Of a stretch of 64,000 nucleotides of DNA, positions 4,691 through 54,858 are shown piece by piece. How positions within the stretch are numbered: the first letter of the stretch is position 1; each line of letters starts with the position of its first letter. This DNA comes from an uncultured Mollicutes bacterium. Lineage in GTDB: Bacteria; Bacillota_I; Bacilli_A; ML615J-28; CAG-313. The stretch covers positions 73,855 through 137,854 of the forward strand of contig URLJ01000001.1 in the NCBI GenBank assembly GCA_900548675.1, in the 5' to 3' direction. Below the pieces are notes generated by a model. The model saw nothing but the letters and a program-made list of their open reading frames with translations. It ran no database searches and was not told where the DNA came from. Position numbers and translations under genes: made by a program.

Positions 4691-6607
4691 CTACCATGAT
4701 GATTCTACATTAAAGCCAGTCATTGGCATACCTGCTAATTGCGCAGCTCCTCCGGTTGATTCGTTATATAATCCTCCAAAACAAATCCCTTCATCTTTTT
4801 TTGCTGTAAATAAAAATTTACCAGAGGATACTGTTGTATTTTTTATTGCTCTTAAATTTGCATAACTACCACCTTCAGCGCAGAAAGCGTCGTTTATTTC
4901 AAAACGTGCATCATATTCAGTTCCTAATGTAAATTCAATTGCAGAGCCTGATGTTCCTTCTGATAATAATGGTAGGTTAGAACATCTAAAATTATTACCA
5001 TCAATTGTTAAAATACCAGAACCTAAATTATAACCTGTTTCATTAGAAGCTCCCTTTTCTTTTATCCAAACTTTCACATTTCTAATAGAATTTGCTACAG
5101 CTCCAAAATTACCATTCCAAAAAGTTCCTTCTAATGTTACGAAAGCAGATCTCCCTTCACCAGTGTTTCGAGTTATTGTTGCTACATTAATTTTAGGAAG
5201 GAAATAATCTAATAAATTAACTTCTGCAGTTCTACTCAAACCAAAATTTCTTGAATCGGTTGCGTAAATACTATAACTTTTTACAGTTACATTATTTATA
5301 GTGTGCGATGTTGCTACCGTACTAGTTTTACTTGCACTACCACCCAATGAAATATATTTATTAGTCGCATATGCTCTTGTTGTTAAAGGATTCGCTGGCG
5401 CACTTATTGTTAAACCGCTATAACCTTTAATCAAATTCAATTGTGATACATTGGTTGTTCCAGTTGCAGTATCAGAATATGATTTGGCCGCACCATTGCT
5501 CCATGAACCAGTTAAAGTTCCTATATAAGATTGAGTTTCTTTATAAGTGCATTCAGCTAATGCCGTAGGTCCACAATTTGCTTCTGATATTATTGCAACA
5601 ATTGGATAAACACTCCAAAAACTACCATAAAGACCTGTAGATTGAACAACAGCTTGTACTCCAGAAGTGGCACGTAAATCGCCATGTCCATTATATGGAG
5701 TAGTTACATTTGCATGCTCTTGGTATAATTGATTTTGTACAGTAGTATTAATAGTAAAAGTCCCTGTTTGGTCTTTCCCTTTCTTATCTCCATTAACAAC
5801 AGTCATGCCTCCAGAAGTACGTTCTAAATATGCTTTTGTCCCGCCATTGTCAGCAATTGTATAATTAGTAGTTACTGTTGCAGTTGAAGAGTTCCCTGAC
5901 CAGGCGCTCAAATAAAAATTATTTGCAGAAGCCATTCTTGCAATTTTAGATGTTGGAATTGTCCACCAAACTTCATTAAGTTGATTCGACACTGAACGTC
6001 GAATTTGCACTCCTAAACTATAATTTGTATTAGGATTTAAAGCTGACGTTCTAAAAGTGCCCGATGAAGCATTAATATCTCCTATAAAATTCCATCCATT
6101 ACCAACGCTCCACCAATGAGCATTACATGTAGCATCAGCAGTCCAATGTGCATCAATATAATCATAGTAGCCAGTCGAACCATATCCTGTAAAATTAGCT
6201 TTACGTGGCAAATTATCTAGATAAAAGGTTTTTGTACCTCCACTAACGTTAACTGCATAATCATACATTGCACCTTCAACATAGGCAGTAAAACTACCGT
6301 CTCCAGTGCTTGTATTATGATAAACAGTATAATCTCCTTCTGTAATATAAGTATCAGCATATACTTTTATATCAGATTCATTATAATATTTTTGCGCACC
6401 GTCAATTAATAACTTAATTTTTCTTCCCCAAATATAATTTCCGCTAGCAGACGAACTTCCTTTTATAGTTAATGTCCAATGAATTGTACTATAAGGAGTA
6501 TCACCATTGGCACTTCCAGTCCAATACCAGTAAAAATTTATATATCTTGAATTATTCCCGGAAGACGTTGTATAAGTGTTACTTGTAAGCGTTCCATTCG
6601 TAGCCAT
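4691..6607 (-). CDS. tail fibre-like protein (638 aa, Ser/Thr/Gly/Asn-rich)
   Basis: Composition and position within the distal tail gene run. Confidence 0.35.
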   Translation of the reverse strand: MATNGTLTSNTYTTSSGNNSRYINFYWYWTGSANGDTPYSTIHWTLTIKGSSSASGNYIWGRKIKLLIDGAQKYYNESDIKVYADTYITEGDYTVYHNTSTGDGSFTAYVEGAMYDYAVNVSGGTKTFYLDNLPRKANFTGYGSTGYYDYIDAHWTADATCNAHWWSVGNGWNFIGDINASSGTFRTSALNPNTNYSLGVQIRRSVSNQLNEVWWTIPTSKIARMASANNFYLSAWSGNSSTATVTTNYTIADNGGTKAYLERTSGGMTVVNGDKKGKDQTGTFTINTTVQNQLYQEHANVTTPYNGHGDLRATSGVQAVVQSTGLYGSFWSVYPIVAIISEANCGPTALAECTYKETQSYIGTLTGSWSNGAAKSYSDTATGTTNVSQLNLIKGYSGLTISAPANPLTTRAYATNKYISLGGSASKTSTVATSHTINNVTVKSYSIYATDSRNFGLSRTAEVNLLDYFLPKINVATITRNTGEGRSAFVTLEGTFWNGNFGAVANSIRNVKVWIKEKGASNETGYNLGSGILTIDGNNFRCSNLPLLSEGTSGSAIEFTLGTEYDARFEINDAFCAEGGSYANLRAIKNTTVSSGKFLFTAKKDEGICFGGLYNESTGGAAQLAGMPMTGFNVESSW

Positions 6608-6619
6608 TTGTTACCTCCT

Positions 6620-9600
6620 TTAGTAGAATAAAAAGTACCAATCGCCGCTTTCTGTTTGTAATTGTTTAAACACGAACGCGCCGTCTTCGCTTTTTGTTCT
6701 ATTACTAATTTTTAATTCGTCATAAATTATTGTTTTTTGTAATTGTGTTTCAGCACCAGAAATTTGAAAAACTGGATTATCCAAATCTGGTTCTTTTATT
6801 GTTTCACCCTCTACTGTTGTTGTTTCCTCTAATTGATATGCCGCAATTTGATTTTCATCAATAAACATCATATTTTGGTCTGATGAAATACTGAAACCCT
6901 TTTCATCCATTCTATATTTTTTAGAATAAGATTCATCTAAATTTTGTGTCCAATAAACACTTGTGCTATCATATTCAAGTTTTAAATCTGCAATTTCAAC
7001 ATTTCCTACAAAATTGCTTGATATTGTAGCTCCACAAATACCAATAATAACTCTAACAGTATCAATGTTAGAACTATTTGATGTATTATCATATAAATTA
7101 TTACTTAAATAATAACTTTTTGTAAAAGGATTGTAAACATAAATTTTGTTAGAACTTGAATTATAACAAATTGTAGTTTCAGCATCAGGCATAGAATTGG
7201 TTTTCGTTTGTGCGTCTGTTGTGCTTGTTGCTGTTTTAAAAGTTTCAATTGAGCGATTATAAGTTGCTGTCACAATTGTTTCTTCTAAAAGGGCGGCCGG
7301 TAATGTAACTAATCTACTATCTGATGCGCTAACAACTCCTTGAACCCCACTTGGACTTACTAAAACAATATTTGAGCCAGTTTGTGGTAAATAAGTTAAT
7401 TCTATTTGACCTTCTTCTGCGACTAAAGTTTCATTTACTTCTTTTGTTACGTGAGCTTCTGGTGTTGCTAAAGGCATTGTTTTATATATATAATCTTGTG
7501 TAAAACTTGCATTAATTTTTTTAATATTTGTTCCCTCGGCTGCCGCGTAGCAATTAATAGGTACATAATATGCATTTGTAATATATGGATTGGAACTACT
7601 TGATGTAAAACTTAATCCATTGGGTTGGTCTATTAAATGTTTATAAAAAACTAAACCAACAAAACAATTTCCTGCAGAAATATTTCCTTTTATTTTATAA
7701 GCCAATAATAAATTTTCTACATTTTCTTTTAAGTCTATTGGTGAACTTAAGATAAAGTCGTATTTAACTTCGTCTGTAGTTTTTGTACGAATTTGGAAAC
7801 TATTACCGCAGACAGTAGCTTTTCTTACTAAAGCTTCTTCATTATAATAAACATTTGAAAAATAATCTTCTTCTAAATTTTTATTTAACCAAAAATCTGC
7901 TTTAATAACTCCACTTGCAACTGCTGTTTTGTGTTGTTGCATAACGCTATTTTTTAATAAATTTACTCCTTTTGTTCTATCAAAAGAAATATCTAATGAC
8001 TCACCAGATAATAACATATTAGAAACAGTTTGTGTTAATGCTTGTGTTTTTTTTTCGTTCTCATCAACCAAAGATACTAAAGTAGTCGCTTGTTGACTAA
8101 CAACACCTAAATCTTCTTTCATTGTTTTTGTATCTGCTATTTCTTGTGCTAGTTTGTCATTAATTGCCGCAATATCATTATTTACTAAATCATTATATTT
8201 TCCAGTTAAATCTCCTTCTACTTGCGTAATTCTATCGTCTGTATCTTCTGGCGCAGGCGTCCAGTCTGTTGCTTGATTACCTTTTTCAATTTTAACTTTT
8301 TTATAAGTATTAACAACGCCATCAGAGCTTCGATAGCCAAGACGTATACCATAACAGTTTGCTGGAACTGTACAATAACCTACCAAACGAGAATATTCAG
8401 TTTTCACTGTTCCTGTTATCCATTGATAACTTGTGCGATTACCTCCTTCAACAGTAGGAAAAAATTCAATTAAACCAGTATTTCCAGTGTACTCGCTTTC
8501 ACCTTTTATATCAAAACTAATTGCCCATTGTTCTCCCGGTTCACATGCAATTAAATTAGTGCTGTTTGCCGTACCATTTAAAGCTTGGGTAAATTCTTTT
8601 AAGCTATCACGTGCGTAATTCCTTGCTCCGATTTGCAAATCATCAATACTATCGACAATACCAATTGTTAAAGTATCTAGCGCATTTGTCGTTCCTCCAG
8701 CCGCATACATTGTACATTTAACTAAATTAGTTGTTTTTGTTGGTGTATAAACTTTTGAACTTTCGTTCGCACTTGAAGTATATTTTGTTGTCCAAGAAGT
8801 TCCGTTTGAACTTTCTTGAATTATAAATCTTCCAGAATAAGCTGTTGATGTTGCACTTGTACCATCTCTATAATATGCACCAAAAGTAATTGTTGCTGGT
8901 GTTAAAGTTCCTTTCATAGAACGAGTAACTGTATTTGCGCTACTTGTTACCCAATAAGTTCTTGCAGTTGTACCATTTGTACCATTTCTACCTACACTAT
9001 AAGAAGTAGAAGTCGTATTATCTGTATAAGTAATTATTGTACGAGTCCATAAATATTGTCCCGCACTTACACTAGGTATTGATGTAACCCAGTCTCCAGT
9101 AGGAACTGTTGTTCCATTTGAAGAAACTTGATAAGTGATTGCAGTTGAACTAATACCTTTGCCTGCAGTACCTGTTTCACCCATTTTACCGATACTATAA
9201 GAAGTACTTGTTGTATTATCCGTATAGGTGATTATTGTTCTAGTCCATAAATATTGACCAGCACTTACGCTCGGTACAGTTAAACTCCATGTACCCGTTG
9301 GTGCGGTTGTTCCTGATGTTCCAACTTGATATGTTACAGTAGTTGAGCTAACACCTTTCCCTGCCGCTCCAGCAGAGCCCGTTGCACCAGTTTGCGCTTT
9401 GCTCCAGCTAAAAGTTTTATTAAATGTCTTTCCAACTACTGTAACTGGAATTGTTAAAACTCCATTATTCGCAATTGATGAAGTTAATGCAGTTGTTACA
9501 GCTACTGTAATTGAAGTATTTGTTTGTCCATTGTTATTAATTGTTGTTGTCATTCCAGCAGAGGGTTTCCCAGATATAGTACCAACTGTAGTTGCTACTT

Positions 9601-10081
9601 GTGTATTACCCTGATATCCATATACTTGAATCGTAACATTATTAGCAATAGCAGTATTATTTTTATCTGCGCGAAAAACATGTGATTCATTTGAAATAAC
9701 AACGTTGCATTCTTCATGAATTTCCGCAATTGTATATTGCGCACTTGCTTTTACCATTTCATCCCCTCCTCTATAAATTTTAAAAGTTTGTTGTTGCTCG
9801 TTGCTTAAACCATGAAATAGTAATATACGAGCATAAATATTTGTTTTTAATGTGACCGCAGCTGAATTACAACTTATACTTTCTCTATAAGTCCCATCGC
9901 TGTTATACACTCTTAGTCGCCATTCTGTAATTGTAGCGCCTTCAATTGTATAAGTGCCAGCAGGGAAGAAAATTAAATCTGAATAAATAGAATTAGGATA
10001 AGAGCTGCTGGTTTCAACAGCTCCTGTATTCAAATTTAAAAAGCCAGTGTGCCATATACCATTAAAATACTGTCTTCCCAT
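6620..10081 (-). CDS. large tail fibre/baseplate protein (1153 aa) with an internal ~62-aa tandem duplication
   Basis: Two near-identical segments (...PSVSAGQYLWTRTIITYTDNTTSTSYS...) encoded around 9010-9380. Ser/Thr-rich beta-type composition. Confidence 0.35.
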   Translation of the reverse strand: MGRQYFNGIWHTGFLNLNTGAVETSSSYPNSIYSDLIFFPAGTYTIEGATITEWRLRVYNSDGTYRESISCNSAAVTLKTNIYARILLFHGLSNEQQQTFKIYRGGDEMVKASAQYTIAEIHEECNVVISNESHVFRADKNNTAIANNVTIQVYGYQGNTQVATTVGTISGKPSAGMTTTINNNGQTNTSITVAVTTALTSSIANNGVLTIPVTVVGKTFNKTFSWSKAQTGATGSAGAAGKGVSSTTVTYQVGTSGTTAPTGTWSLTVPSVSAGQYLWTRTIITYTDNTTSTSYSIGKMGETGTAGKGISSTAITYQVSSNGTTVPTGDWVTSIPSVSAGQYLWTRTIITYTDNTTSTSYSVGRNGTNGTTARTYWVTSSANTVTRSMKGTLTPATITFGAYYRDGTSATSTAYSGRFIIQESSNGTSWTTKYTSSANESSKVYTPTKTTNLVKCTMYAAGGTTNALDTLTIGIVDSIDDLQIGARNYARDSLKEFTQALNGTANSTNLIACEPGEQWAISFDIKGESEYTGNTGLIEFFPTVEGGNRTSYQWITGTVKTEYSRLVGYCTVPANCYGIRLGYRSSDGVVNTYKKVKIEKGNQATDWTPAPEDTDDRITQVEGDLTGKYNDLVNNDIAAINDKLAQEIADTKTMKEDLGVVSQQATTLVSLVDENEKKTQALTQTVSNMLLSGESLDISFDRTKGVNLLKNSVMQQHKTAVASGVIKADFWLNKNLEEDYFSNVYYNEEALVRKATVCGNSFQIRTKTTDEVKYDFILSSPIDLKENVENLLLAYKIKGNISAGNCFVGLVFYKHLIDQPNGLSFTSSSSNPYITNAYYVPINCYAAAEGTNIKKINASFTQDYIYKTMPLATPEAHVTKEVNETLVAEEGQIELTYLPQTGSNIVLVSPSGVQGVVSASDSRLVTLPAALLEETIVTATYNRSIETFKTATSTTDAQTKTNSMPDAETTICYNSSSNKIYVYNPFTKSYYLSNNLYDNTSNSSNIDTVRVIIGICGATISSNFVGNVEIADLKLEYDSTSVYWTQNLDESYSKKYRMDEKGFSISSDQNMMFIDENQIAAYQLEETTTVEGETIKEPDLDNPVFQISGAETQLQKTIIYDELKISNRTKSEDGAFVFKQLQTESGDWYFLFY

Positions 10082-10093
10082 TTAAATCCTCCT

Positions 10094-11902
10094 TTACTCA
10101 ACTTCACAAATGAAAGTTGTTTTTGTGTCTACTTCCGCGTCACTTACATAAATAACTTTTCCAGTTTTAAATACGGCACCGTTATCTAATGCATCCCCTT
10201 CAGCATCTAATCGATACCAATTATATGTGTAATCTTGAGCCTCTGTCGCAGTTGCCCAAGTACTTCCATTATATTTCATTAAAGTTACTGTTTTAGCATT
10301 TGTATCTACTTTGTACCAAAGCGTTCCACTTGTTGGACTACTTGGCGCACTTACACTAATATCTGCTAATAAACCGTCTGTTTCATTTCCATTTGCAAAT
10401 AATCTACAAGTTAAAGTTGTATTTCCAATTCCGTTTTTGAAAATATTTCCACCTGTACTTTCAATTGTTGCAACCATCGAATCTGATTTATCTTCTAAAG
10501 TAATTACGTCTTGATAAGTTTGTGAATTATATGTCATTGTGCATCTATAAGTTGCTATGTTTGCAACTGAGCTACCATCAACAGATAAAGTCGCTGCAGT
10601 TCCAACTTGAGACCAAGAGCCAGAGGCATATTTTTCCCATTTGTATGTAGCTCCAGAGCTGATTGATGTCGCACCATCATAAGCTTGAGTAGCTAATGTT
10701 AATGTGCCACTTTGATTAATGAAAACTGTTCCATTTGGAGCATAAACTGTAAATACCACTGCATTTTCTCCATCTTGTCCCGCAGCCCCTGCTGCACCTT
10801 TAACAGCCTTTGACCAACTAAATGTTTTAGTAACTGTTTGGCCATTTGAAGTAATTACTAATGGAATTGTTCCACTATCTACATTTCCTAAAGTGGCTCC
10901 TTTTGTAATTGATAATGTTAAAGTAACTACATTATTAGAAGTTGCTTGAGTTGCTGTCATTCCGCTTGGTAAACCTGTTGGAGTTGTTAAAGTACAACTT
11001 GTAATTGCTGTTCCTTTATAAGCTGTAATTGGAATAGTAATTGTTGTGGCGGCTGAAATTGGATGATTTGTACTTGCGTCTGCAATAATAGATTGCGCTT
11101 CGTTGCCAATAATTACTGATAAACCTCCCGCGCCCGCAGCGCCATTTGTTCCTGCTTTACCATCATATAATTTACTAATTGAAATTATGTCGTAAACATC
11201 AGTATTTTCTGTTGATAGTTTAATTGTAGCAACATCGTCAACAAAAATTCCATGAGAAGGTTTAACATTTAAAGTCCCGCTTGTAATATTTGCATTATCA
11301 GATGTTGTTGGATAATCAACAAAATTCCCACTACTGTTTTTATATTGCCATCTAATTGTAGAAACACCTTGTATTTCTCCAGTTAAACTAATTGAATCTG
11401 GACCTATTAAAGTTTTATCTCCATTATATTTAAAAATTTGTGCCCCACTAATTGTAGCTAACCTTGCGCTTGAAGCATTTTTTACTAAAGAATAAGAAAT
11501 ATCAGCTTGCGCATAAACTGTTTGTCTTGTTTGTGGGTCAATATATTGTATATAACATATATAAGTAACTAATCCCGAATTTGAACTTGATAATACATTT
11601 GTATTAACAGTTAATTTTCCACCGCTTACAGTTTCTCCAGTTGTAAGAGATGCCTCTGCCCCAGAGCCATCTCTTCTTTTATAATTAATTGTTAAACCAG
11701 AGGCATTTAATTGCACTGCAGTTTGATTAAGGAAAATTGTAGGTTCAACTACTAAATTTGTAGTTGTCCAGTTAGGATTAAAAGCATTTGTATCTTGGTC
11801 TAAAATTTGTGTTTTTGGTAAATTTGATGTTAAATATACTGATAGTTGTCTGCTATCTGATAAATCAACAATCGTAATTTGACCTGAAGCTTTTATTGCC
11901 AT
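10094..11902 (-). CDS. tail/baseplate structural protein (602 aa)
   Basis: Position and composition. Repeated GAAG/TNGAAGAGG segments. Confidence 0.3.
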   Translation of the reverse strand: MAIKASGQITIVDLSDSRQLSVYLTSNLPKTQILDQDTNAFNPNWTTTNLVVEPTIFLNQTAVQLNASGLTINYKRRDGSGAEASLTTGETVSGGKLTVNTNVLSSSNSGLVTYICYIQYIDPQTRQTVYAQADISYSLVKNASSARLATISGAQIFKYNGDKTLIGPDSISLTGEIQGVSTIRWQYKNSSGNFVDYPTTSDNANITSGTLNVKPSHGIFVDDVATIKLSTENTDVYDIISISKLYDGKAGTNGAAGAGGLSVIIGNEAQSIIADASTNHPISAATTITIPITAYKGTAITSCTLTTPTGLPSGMTATQATSNNVVTLTLSITKGATLGNVDSGTIPLVITSNGQTVTKTFSWSKAVKGAAGAAGQDGENAVVFTVYAPNGTVFINQSGTLTLATQAYDGATSISSGATYKWEKYASGSWSQVGTAATLSVDGSSVANIATYRCTMTYNSQTYQDVITLEDKSDSMVATIESTGGNIFKNGIGNTTLTCRLFANGNETDGLLADISVSAPSSPTSGTLWYKVDTNAKTVTLMKYNGSTWATATEAQDYTYNWYRLDAEGDALDNGAVFKTGKVIYVSDAEVDTKTTFICEVE

Positions 11903-52306: not shown

Positions 52307-52382
52307 AGTCCGTTAGCTCAGCTGGTAGAGCATCGCCCTTACAAGGCGGAGGTCGTTGGTTCGAACCCAACACGGACTACCA
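52307..52382 (+). tRNA. tRNA-Val(TAC)
   Basis: Acceptor AGTCCGT/ACGGACT. D-arm GCTC-AGCTGGTA-GAGC. Anticodon loop CTTACAA. T-arm GTTGG-TTCGAAC-CCAAC. CCA encoded. Confidence 0.7.
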
Positions 52383-52550
52383 TTCGAGGATAACTAACTG
52401 GTCTCACCTCTTTAAAAATGAGAACTCTGCTGCGGAGCGCGTACCATCGCAGGGACAAATAAATTAGGCGGAGCAATGCCCTAAATGCTCTGAACAAATA
52501 TGGGCACTTATATAGCGGGGTGGAGCAGTTGGCAGCTCGCCAGGCTCATA

Positions 52551-53111
52551 GAAAATTGTGGCTCCATGTAGAAATACATAGATGAACTGTGGATGAATTC
52601 AGAGGAGGCTAAGTCTTTTGGAAAAGAAAATTATAGGTTATGATGATGTATATACAATAGATACTAATGGTATTGTATATAGAAATGGTAAACCAATGTC
52701 CCCAAGGGATAATGGTATAGGTTATCAGCAAATAGGATTGCGTTTAAATCGCAGACGATACAATGTTTATATTCACAGATTGGTTTGGGAAACTTTTAAA
52801 GGAGATATACCAAATGGATATGAGATTAACCATATAGACCATAATAAACATAATAATAACTTAGATAATTTAGAGTTAGTATCTCACTCTACCAATTTAA
52901 AAAAATCAGTAGAAAGATATGGATACTATGGTTCTATGAATAGACCAAAAGATATGCGAACTTTGAGCCAAGCCGAAGATACATCTTCGGAAGGTGCAGA
53001 GACTACTGGAGAGGTATAGTCCTCTTAATAACCAGTTTAAGTATCCACTACCTAAGTCGTAAGATATGGTAAAGACATAGTCCACTCTATAATGAAAATT
53101 ATAGGTAAGTA
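52551..53111 (+). mobile_element. group-I-like intron carrying an HNH homing endonuclease ORF
   Basis: R-like TTCAGAGGAGGCTAAGTC (52598-52615) and S-like AAAGACATAGTCC (53071-53083) could pair to form P7 (GGCTA/TAGTC). The ORF lies between them, and its RBS GAGGAGG (52602-52608) is embedded in the R element. Confidence 0.45.
52618..53019 (+). CDS. intron-encoded HNH homing endonuclease (TTG start)
   Basis: Layout typical of phage HNH homing endonucleases (HNH_3/NUMOD-like): conserved YIHRLVW, then EINHIDHNKHNNNLDNLELVSHSTN. RBS 9 nt upstream of the TTG start. Confidence 0.55.
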   Translation: MEKKIIGYDDVYTIDTNGIVYRNGKPMSPRDNGIGYQQIGLRLNRRRYNVYIHRLVWETFKGDIPNGYEINHIDHNKHNNNLDNLELVSHSTNLKKSVERYGYYGSMNRPKDMRTLSQAEDTSSEGAETTGEV

Positions 53112-53177
53112 AACCCGAAGGTCGTAGGTTCAAATCCTACTCCCGCAACCAATAGAAGATCATAGAGGTTGGTAAAA

Positions 53178-53459
53178 ATGGCAATTATCTATTATATAGA
53201 CAACAAAGCAAACTGGAAAGGATATGTTGGTTGTTCTAAAACTCCACTATCTCATAGATGGGGGAAACATAAATATTTATTAAGGCATAACCTACATTCT
53301 AACAAGGAACTGCAAGATGACTGGAATAAATATGGAGAGCACAGCTTTAGTGCTTTTGTTATAGAAACCTGCCCAGATAGTAAGATGCTAGAGAGAGAAA
53401 AGTATCATATAAACAGATTACAAACAAATGTCAGAGGGGTTGGGTACAACCAGAAGTAA
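53178..53459 (+). CDS. GIY-YIG endonuclease, catalytic-domain-only (93 aa)
   Basis: IYYIDNKANWKGYVGCS...R...KH...E...N is the classic GIY-YIG motif set. Starts 27 nt after the tRNA-Met 3' exon. No DNA-binding extension. Confidence 0.5.
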   Translation: MAIIYYIDNKANWKGYVGCSKTPLSHRWGKHKYLLRHNLHSNKELQDDWNKYGEHSFSAFVIETCPDSKMLEREKYHINRLQTNVRGVGYNQK

Positions 53460-54366: not shown

Positions 54367-54858
54367 ATGTGGAAATCGTATGATGATATATATGAGATAA
54401 GCACTGGTGGTAAGATAAGAAATAAGAAAAGTCCTGATAAGATATTAAAGACATATGTTAATAATTGTGGATATGAGAAATTCAAGGGCCACAATGTACA
54501 TCAGTATGTACATAGAATGGTAGCGGAGACATTCATACCTAATCCATCTGGTAAAGAACAAGTGAACCATAAAAATGGGGATAAGCTGGATAACAGGGCA
54601 GAAAATCTTGAATGGGTAACTCGTAGTGAGAACGTATCTCACGCTTATAAGTGCCTAGGAAGAAAACGTAGTTACTGTGGTTCAAAAGGACATAATGCTA
54701 AAAAGGTATATCAGTATTCATTAGAAGGTCAGCTCCTTACTACCTATAATTCGGTGGGTGCAGCTGCAGAAGCTGTCGGAGGTGCAAGTCCTAACATCAG
54801 CAGATGTTGCAATGGGCATATTAAAACATACAAAAACTTTGTATGGAAAAATGAATAA
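54367..54858 (+). CDS. HNH homing endonuclease (free-standing)
   Basis: YVHRMVAETF and NHKNGDKLDNRAENLEWVTRSEN follow the same pattern as the intron-encoded HNH. Own promoter TTGACG...TATAAT at about 54287-54320. Confidence 0.5.
   Translation: MWKSYDDIYEISTGGKIRNKKSPDKILKTYVNNCGYEKFKGHNVHQYVHRMVAETFIPNPSGKEQVNHKNGDKLDNRAENLEWVTRSENVSHAYKCLGRKRSYCGSKGHNAKKVYQYSLEGQLLTTYNSVGAAAEAVGGASPNISRCCNGHIKTYKNFVWKNE

Follow-up and report, generated by a model that had tools for sequence, protein, structure and literature searches.

A probable mobile group I intron ending in A within the anticodon loop of a phage initiator-type tRNA-Met(CAU) gene

The DNA analysed here is a stretch of 64,000 nucleotides (nt) of contig URLJ01000001.1 (assembly GCA_900548675.1, positions 73,855 to 137,854 of the forward strand), hereafter called the window and numbered from its first letter. 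It is a segment of a tailed-phage genome in which an initiator-type tRNA-Met(CAU) gene is interrupted within its anticodon loop. The insertion is probably a mobile, IA-like group I intron that lies between tRNA positions 36 and 37, is excised at the boundary between A53111 and A53112 and spreads by homing through an HNH endonuclease encoded within it, an A29·C41 mismatch in the anticodon stem being the scar of one such event. Elements of this kind are already known; the main interest lies in a lineage most of whose introns end in A, together with a probable homing footprint that can be followed at the level of single nucleotides.

Results

An initiator-type tRNA gene split after its anticodon

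The tRNA gene is divided into two exons (Table 1). The 5' exon, which was aligned with 20 or more homologous split tRNAs, carries the anticodon-stem strand CCAGG at 52540-52544, and the 3' exon supplies in turn AA, the opposite strand CCCGA, the variable loop AGGUC, the T arm, the acceptor strand UCCCGCA, a discriminator A and an encoded CCA. When U36 is joined to A37 in silico, the product is a 76-nt cloverleaf with CAU in a 7-nt loop, which ARAGORN calls as tRNA-Met(cat); the interrupted gene (52514-53151) is called neither by ARAGORN nor by the Rfam tRNA model. A1 (52514) faces A72 (53147) without a Watson-Crick pair, as do the A·A, A·C, A·G or C·A combinations of the relatives. The D stem (GAGC/GCUC) gives the split tRNA an A11:U24 pair, and a purine 11:pyrimidine 24 pair is a mark of bacterial initiator tRNAs. 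The 3' half is likewise of initiator type and is identical to bacterial tRNA-fMet through the variable loop. These features agree with a first-pass annotation of the sequence, which had recognised two initiator-like tRNA-Met(CAT) halves with a 1:72 mismatch flanking an insertion. The three consecutive G:C pairs expected of an initiator at 29-31:39-41 are absent, A29·C41 being mismatched, and several phage relatives have A29-U41 and hence two G:C pairs only.

Covariation supports a group I ribozyme

The fold was assessed in an alignment of 20 sequences from which the open reading frames (ORFs) had been cut out (alignment A2), by counting the pairs of a hand-drawn structure. The structure comprises 67 pairs in 13 helices, and 98.3% of the cells are paired, against 34-47% in a control in which the 3' partners were slid by 1-3 columns. 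Changes on both sides are seen at 41 of the 67 pairs, and in 500 shuffles the observed values were never attained. Every pair in P2 and in P6 shows variation; P7 is invariant, including the G:C pair of the guanosine-binding site and the bulged A, and the P3/P7 pseudoknot lies within the covariation-supported helices. The Rfam group I model RF00028 matches 52853-53104 with 40.8 bits (E 7.8e-9 in a 901-nt search), with P6, P7, P7' and P9 well aligned and the 5' part of the model forced into the ORF. At the gathering threshold there is no match, because a 330-nt ORF in L5 breaks the model. The Infernal comparison proposed in the first-pass annotation was in this way positive, if sub-threshold, for a group I intron and gave no call with the tRNA model.

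A plain insertion of an endonuclease gene that has killed the tRNA gene, with no ribozyme involved, would account for the failure to reach the Rfam threshold. It is nonetheless extremely improbable in view of the thirteen covariation-supported helices, P3/P7 pseudoknot included, and of versions of the same insert that have no ORF at all. The covariation counts contradict this scenario, which the earlier annotation had raised as the counter-case, and bear out its identification of a genuine group I intron in a tRNA(CAU) gene; the insertion measures 562 nt.

P1 is formed by the end of the 5' exon and the internal guide. The splice-site wobble U52549 (U36)·G52558 is U·G in all 20 sequences (column pair 11:29), and P1 also has a C-G and an A-U pair, each in 20/20. 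As read from the sequence, UU at 52556-52557 could pair with A37 and A38 as a candidate P10. The guanosine-binding pair G53001:C53082 (column pair 123:215) is canonical, sits next to the bulged A53000 and is invariant in 20/20. In the P5/P5a region (strands 52608-52621 and 52945-52957), GC at 52608-52609 pairs with GC at 52956-52957, and the UAAG/UAU internal loop that remains is similar to a tetraloop receptor; P5a pairings recognised by eye in homologues are UUU/AAA, UUC/GAA and UUAU/AUAA. The P7.1/P7.2 extension, an element typical of subgroup IA, suggests an IA-like architecture, as opposed to the IC3 architecture of classical tRNA introns.

This anatomy differs in part from that first proposed. 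The S element (53071-53083) had been placed correctly and contains the 3' strand of P7, but the supposed R element at 52598-52615 consists of J3/4, the 5' strand of P4 and J4/5, and its P4 strand pairs with 52961-52966. The proposed P7 pairing between 52598-52615 and 53071-53083 does not exist: the true R element is GCAGAGACTAC at about 52997-53007, and the real P7 5' strand (52999-53005) falls within the 3'-terminal part of the ORF. R and S accordingly do not flank the ORF, which is an insertion in L5 that overlaps R.

A single mismatch, C52565·A52580 in P2, occurs in the window ribozyme and is shared by L239, a close relative described below; apart from it no pair is broken. All three broken pairs of the locus, this one and two in the anticodon stem, are C·A.

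An HNH endonuclease gene embedded in the ribozyme

The annotated ORF at 52618-53019 with its TTG initiation codon withstood closer examination: the product matches HNH_3 (E 2.1e-17), the starts of its homologues align with it, and a Shine-Dalgarno sequence stands upstream. A protein search gave 53 HNH homologues (E<=1e-10), which start at the residue encoded by the window TTG (M-x-K-x-I-x-GYD). There are 27 invariant columns among the homologues, and residues N71, H72, D74, H75, N79, N80 and N84 are invariant among 22 of them. The Shine-Dalgarno sequence is also kept, as AAGGAGG in L221 and L223 and as AAGGAG with an ATG start in L213. The gene is interwoven with the ribozyme at both ends. Its start codon falls within the 5' strand of P5a, the final ~25 codons coincide with the ribozyme core (P5'-P4'-P6-P7-P7.1), and the stop codon TAG (53017-53019) lies in the P7.2 loop; the corresponding protein tail, GSMNRPK..LSQA..EGAETTGEV, is conserved in most homologues. 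Because the homologues share both the start and the core-encoded tail, the TTG codon and the overlap with the core are features of the family and not signs of decay. An ATG at 52593, inside P3, is the start codon in homologues of the L159/P0007 type and is out of frame in the window. Residues 3-100 match I-HmuI (PDB 1U3E; E 5.2e-7), which suggests an I-HmuI-like homing endonuclease.

The 3'-terminal adenosine

Of 5,292 split bacterial tRNA genes in one survey, 98.5% had U(-1)/G(omega), the C(-1) class being the sole real exception reported (bioRxiv 10.1101/2020.01.27.920355), and the accessible literature yielded no account of a natural tRNA intron whose terminal nucleotide is other than G. 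In the window the omega position (alignment column 244) is A53111, a point that the first-pass annotation had passed over. The terminal nucleotide is A in 15 of the 20 aligned rows and additionally in L238 and L239 (about 17 members), and G in five: L213, L231, L235, L237 and L159, the last judged by its own 8-nt tail, where the aligned A is a 1-nt misalignment. The window tail is GGUAAGUA, followed by AACCCGA. Clostridial copies read AUAACUA before AACCC, with no G in the 7-nt tail, and G-ending copies place their G at the same column (AUAACUG in L231, GAAAUCG in L235, GUAGCAG in L237).

Two considerations place the junction before A53112. In the 5' flank, relatives have either A or G after CAU; A37 must therefore be supplied by exon 2, which the logic of the tRNA requires to begin at A53112. 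In addition, the two or three nucleotides before the terminal column pair with J7/9 to form P9.0, just as this helix precedes an omega G, covarying as AG:CU, ACU:AGU and GGU:AUC (column pair 218:242, GC 14, CG 3, GU 1, UA 1; 217:243, AU 18, GC 1); because this covariation runs directly up to it, the terminal position is fixed. The 15 A-ending sequences taken alone are 98.4% paired with 37 compensatory pairs, and seven ORF-less bacterial and metagenomic copies by themselves show 9. The guanosine-binding site is unchanged despite the variation between terminal A and G, and inspection of alignment A2 by eye revealed no nucleotide in P7 or J8/7 that covaries with it.

Splicing might instead use the nearest G, either G53109 or G53104 at the end of P9, which would leave 2 or 7 extra nucleotides in the anticodon loop. 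The Rfam model alignment does end at G53104, and related tRNA-Leu and tRNA-Asn introns end in ...GGUAAG, resembling 53105-53109. Against this, there is no G whatever in the clostridial tail, L231, L235 and L237 carry G exactly where the others carry A, the nucleotides immediately before that column are engaged in P9.0, and ARAGORN miscalls the +2 product as tRNA-Asn(att) and recognises no tRNA in the +7 product. Both junctions were rejected on the strength of the G-less tails, the P9.0 covariation and the ARAGORN results, and we regard a displaced junction as very unlikely. A 5' splice site after U33, as in the cyanobacterial fMet intron, was also considered and rejected; a GGCU/GGCU P1 can be drawn for it, but no CAUAA follows any candidate 3' site.

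A hybrid anticodon stem as a probable footprint of homing

The anticodon stem of the window copy contains the mismatches C27·A43 and A29·C41, leaving three of five pairs. The other members of the family have fully paired stems in seven versions (UCGGG/CCCGA, UUGGG/CCCAA, UUAGG/CCUAA, CAAGG/CCUUG, CUGGG/CCCAG, UCAGU/GCUGA and UCAGG/CCUGA), so that mismatches occur in the window copy only. The first-pass annotation was right that the spliced stem CCAGG/CCCGA would have two mismatches, but overstated the case in finding no GGG:CCC signature, since G30:C40 and G31:C39 remain.

The origin of the stem is illuminated by L239, a 929-nt gut-metagenome contig with the perfect stem UCAGG/CCUGA. Over 641 aligned bases, L239 and the window are identical throughout 52541-52668 and 52889-53115, which include every ribozyme segment, yet their exons differ at 12 positions, the nearest being 52540 (tRNA position 27) and 53116 (position 41). 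Identical ribozyme segments between differing exons indicate that one and the same intron occupies two distinct tRNA alleles. From this comparison, A29·C41 is best taken as a trace left by recent homing in which the co-converted tract was short and asymmetric. The tract would have covered tRNA positions 28 to 40, bringing in A29 from a donor with an A29-U41 stem and leaving the C41 of the recipient in place. The C27·A43 mismatch would be either a further T-to-C change or a contribution of an unsampled recipient allele. None of the explanations first offered for the odd stem (a degenerate tRNA, another junction or drift of the exon) is quite right: the junction between U36 and A37 is the expected one, and the stem is a hybrid.

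L239 also differs from the window in the interval ~460-520 (window 52842-52888), where 14 substitutions, all of T, C or G to A, destroy the ORF. This could be decay of the endonuclease gene or an assembly artefact.

Relatives in phages and clostridial chromosomes

A P7-P7.1 pattern run against IMG/VR retrieved 44 introns of the same architectural class, in DNA-polymerase, psbA-like and tRNA genes. Orthologues found with a P1-P3 pattern reside on one phage contig (L159), three metagenome contigs and seven contigs of metagenome-assembled genomes (MAGs) from uncultured Clostridia or Clostridium, and further loci (L221-L239) were collected from the genomic context of the HNH homologues. At all orthologous loci, which add 20 or more other genes of tRNA-fMet type, the intron follows the CAU of an initiator-like tRNA. 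In the clostridial copies there is no ORF; they are ~250 nt long and interrupt canonical tRNA-fMet genes beginning CGCGGGG...; ARAGORN missed every gene with an ORF-less intron (L214-L220 on GTDB MAG contigs, L211 and L212 from metagenomes). L214 and L219 have similar flanks, with genes for a DacB-type carboxypeptidase, sortase, signal peptidase and ComEA recognised by eye from the translations. These chromosome-type neighbours led us to reject, for these two loci, the idea that the bacterial copies are binned phage contigs, and point to a chromosomal rather than a phage context.

Other searches were less productive. BLAST against cultured phage genomes returned no relative of the intron, the matches being short HNH segments and tRNA 3' halves only. 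IMG/VR scans for an S element followed by a tRNA 3' half, and for the P1 junction, gave mostly chance matches, namely uninterrupted tRNA-fMet genes or unrelated coding DNA, and a degenerate P3-P4 pattern found L159 only.

Several of the related loci have peculiarities of their own. L213, a metagenomic phage contig, holds a homologous intron with an HNH gene in a different CAU tRNA (stem UCAGU/GCUGA), in which a 4-bp P9 is followed directly by the terminal G. On the L217 contig, from a Clostridia MAG, a second, intron-less tRNA-fMet-like gene (6393-6468) lies 4.2 kb downstream and carries A7·C66 and A27·A43 mismatches; the intron-bearing copy is canonical. Introns of the P7.1/P7.2 class also occur in tRNA-Leu(UAA) genes from IMG/VR (L051, L087, L137, L152, L155 and L168), where the 3' junction reads G followed by CUUAAAAUCCCU, so the whole anticodon loop is in exon 2 and exon 1 would have to end at A31. 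Two of these (L137 and L168) have no U at or beside the 5' splice site, and this would add another type of non-canonical nucleotide at a splice junction. At L046 (6330-6660) an intron has the same P1, GGCUCAU continuing into ..UUGUG, and a 3' flank of G followed by UAAAUCGAU, and ~75 nt of unrelated sequence intervene between the acceptor and D arm of the tRNA and the exon part of P1; the insertion may be ectopic or have been rearranged.

Genomic setting

The phage segment has ~30% G+C and a long structural module on the minus strand; the large terminase shares 45% identity with its counterpart in Geobacillus virus E3. A plus-strand cluster of tRNA genes (Leu-UAG, Leu-UAA, Tyr, Gln, Val) ends at 52382, and the split gene begins 130 nt downstream of it. 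L213 has the same tRNA order (Leu-UAG, Leu-UAA, Tyr, Gln...; 7050-10131). Directly after the intron-bearing gene comes a free-standing GIY-YIG gene which, as first described, encodes a catalytic domain only (93-96 aa) and is not part of the intron. It is followed at 54367-54858 by a further endonuclease gene, for a 163-aa HNH_3 and NUMOD1 protein. With these two genes directly after the intron, the stretch 3' of the tRNA cluster is a homing-endonuclease hot spot.

Table 1. Coordinates of the split tRNA gene, the elements of its intron and the adjoining gene in the window
Feature	Coordinates	Strand	Basis or remark
tRNA 5' exon, positions 1-36, AGCGGGGTGGAGCAGTTGGCAGCTCGCCAGGCTCAT, ending with anticodon CAU	52514-52549	+	Sequence; ARAGORN on spliced product
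P1, exon UCAU 52546-52549 with internal guide GUGG 52558-52561	52546-52561	+	Alignment pair counts
Group I intron, 562 nt, between tRNA positions 36 and 37	52550-53111	+	RF00028 match; family alignment
P2 hairpin, GAAA tetraloop	52564-52581	+	7/7 pairs with changes on both sides
P3 5' strand GUGGAUG, partner 53042-53048	52589-52595	+	Alignment pair counts
P4 5' strand UCAGAG, partner CUUUGA 52961-52966	52599-52604	+	4/6 pairs compensatory
Shine-Dalgarno GAGGAGG, 9 nt before TTG, overlapping P4 and J4/5	52602-52608	+	Sequence
P5a 5' strand UCUUUUGG, partner CCAAAAGA at 52945-52952	52614-52621	+	Sequence; by-eye comparison with homologues
HNH homing-endonuclease gene, 133 aa, TTG start, inserted in L5	52618-53019	+	Pfam HNH_3 (PF13392) E 2.1e-17
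P4 3' strand CUUUGA	52961-52966	+	Alignment pair counts
P6 hairpin CCGAAGA UACA UCUUCGG	52973-52990	+	7/7 pairs compensatory
P7 5' strand, G52999, bulged A53000, GACUA 53001-53005	52999-53005	+	Invariant 20/20; RF00028 alignment
P7.1/P7.2 extension between P7 and P3' (CUGG AGAGG uauagu CCUCU uaauaa CCAG)	53006-53035	+	Compensatory changes, helices 8 and 9
P3 3' strand UAUCCAC	53042-53048	+	Alignment pair counts
P8 with CCUAAG...UAUGG 11-nt tetraloop-receptor motif (read from sequence), GUAA-capped tip	53049-53071	+	Helices 10 and 11
P7 3' strand UAGUCC	53078-53083	+	Alignment pair counts; RF00028 alignment
P9.0, J7/9 ACU 53084-53086 with AGU 53108-53110, enclosing P9	53084-53110	+	Helices 12 and 13
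P9 hairpin, GAAA loop	53087-53104	+	Alignment pair counts
Last intron nucleotide (omega position), A	53111	+	Alignment column 244
tRNA 3' exon, positions 37-76, AACCCGAAGGTCGTAGGTTCAAATCCTACTCCCGCAACCA	53112-53151	+	Sequence; ARAGORN on spliced product
Free-standing GIY-YIG gene, adjoining the intron	53178-53459	+	Pfam GIY-YIG E 1.7e-7

Discussion

The mobile intron proposed here would work as follows. After transcription the ribozyme would fold and an exogenous G would cleave after U36; the exons would then be joined with the 3' junction between A53111 and A53112, restoring the loop CUCAUAA, with ligation helped by P9.0, by P10 (A37A38:UU) and by the anticodon stem that forms between the exons. 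Translation and folding would be mutually exclusive, because the ribosome-binding site and start codon lie in P4-P5. The HNH protein would nick or cut tRNA-fMet alleles that lack the intron, carried by co-infecting phages and possibly by the clostridial host, and repair would copy the intron in. The occurrence of identical ribozyme segments in two tRNA alleles lends such site-specific cleavage indirect support.

Several observations weigh against this proposal. The 3'-terminal omega G expected before the 3' exon is replaced by A53111, and changing the omega G to C abolished ligation in the tRNA introns so examined (PMC13011429). Two of the five anticodon-stem pairs are mismatched, and co-conversion leaves C27·A43 unexplained, as both L239 and the most similar tRNA, that of L236, have U27. 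The RF00028 score is below the gathering score of 50, and a whole-window E-value scan with Rfam loses the intron match and finds no further RNA. Finally, the HNH protein has no recognisable C-terminal DNA-binding domain: no NUMOD match was obtained at E<=0.01 (Pfam), and the alignment to 1U3E stops at residue 103 of 174.

The most serious competing explanation is a dead end, in which the intron is real but the window copy, and perhaps every A-ending copy, is unable to ligate its exons, the resulting pseudogene being tolerated through initiator tRNA from host or other phage copies and selection acting on the endonuclease gene only. The A at the omega position and the two stem mismatches present in no relative would fit such a state, as would the accumulation of an intron-3' exon intermediate by the omega G-to-C mutant (PMC13011429) and the ability of intron-bearing genomes to hold a second tRNA-fMet gene (L217 and L238). 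It is harder to reconcile with the A-ending copies, which keep the whole fold with compensatory changes even when the ORF-less copies are considered alone, have flawless exons and show covariation of P9.0 right beside the A. In L217, moreover, it is the intron-less gene that carries mismatches, and the window ribozyme is intact except for the P2 mismatch common to L239. On balance we consider a dead end rather unlikely.

For A-ending introns in general, conservation argues that the exons are ligated, and the chemistry as currently understood argues that ligation would be poor; the reaction may be unusually tolerant, with help from P9.0, P10 and the stem between the exons, or else inefficient. 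The broader notion that the 36/37 lineage of tRNA-fMet introns is a natural clade that splices with a 3'-terminal A and moves between phage and chromosomal initiator-tRNA genes by HNH homing is put forward tentatively, and we lean slightly against it. The window copy itself is a case apart. Its splicing and tRNA function are in doubt because the hybrid stem leaves three of five pairs and the terminus is A; the weakened stem may lower both, and from the sequence we would give them roughly even odds.

That a 36/37 intron occurs both in phage initiator tRNAs and in chromosomes of Clostridia suggests that introns pass between phage and host by way of an essential target common to the two. Together, the window and L239 offer a view of a homing event at nucleotide resolution, in which the mismatched hybrid stem is a concrete cost of mobility to the host gene. 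If A-ending introns splice, they are a natural exception to the rule that a terminal G is indispensable for exon ligation; if they do not, many bacterial and phage tRNA-fMet genes have been silently inactivated by a well-preserved ribozyme, which would also need explaining. A practical point is that tRNA-fMet genes split by introns escape standard tRNA finders.

Comparison with known systems

The closest parallel in position is the intron in the pre-tRNA-Ile(CAU) of Azoarcus sp. BH72 (class 'Ile2.5Ug'), which occupies the same site, 36/37 after CAU. Both have a short CAU/GUG P1 that includes a U·G wobble, and in both P2 and P9 are capped by GAAA tetraloops, P8 and P5 hold receptors of the CCUAAG...UAUGG type, and the R (GNAGAGACUA) and S (AUAGUCC) elements are the same; among the loci collected here, L119 is an Azoarcus-like example. 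The Azoarcus intron is a minimal IC3 intron of about 205 nt, without P7.1/P7.2 or an ORF, and ends in G, whereas in the window intron P7.1/P7.2 is present, L5 contains an HNH gene, the terminal nucleotide is A and the host is a tRNA of initiator type.

The cyanobacterial tRNA-fMet intron (class 'fMet.2Ug') likewise interrupts an initiator tRNA gene, is self-splicing, as predicted for the window, and carries a gene for a homing endonuclease, and the target of its PD-(D/E)XK endonuclease I-Ssp6803I is the anticodon region of tRNA-fMet genes. It differs in being an IC3 intron that ends in G, encodes a PF11645 endonuclease rather than HNH_3 and has a bacterial rather than a phage host. It also lies at 33/34 instead of 36/37, the only group I site in tRNA-fMet named in either of two recent accounts (PMC13011429; bioRxiv 10.1101/2020.01.27.920355). 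The tRNA-Asn and tRNA-Asp introns of Patescibacteria are again of group I, lie in the anticodon loops of bacterial-type tRNAs and escape annotation tools, and a few carry HNH-family endonuclease genes, but they interrupt other tRNAs at 35/36, their HNH family is PF01844 and not PF13392, and they end in a G that is experimentally required (mSystems 2026, PMC13011429).

Finally, the DNA-polymerase introns of the Bacillus phages SPO1 and SP82 (I-HmuI and I-HmuII) also place an HNH nicking-type endonuclease in a group I intron of a Firmicutes phage, with a protein-coding gene as host. I-HmuI has 174 aa and a C-terminal DNA-binding domain, whereas the window protein has 133 aa and its C-terminal ~25 residues are translated ribozyme core.

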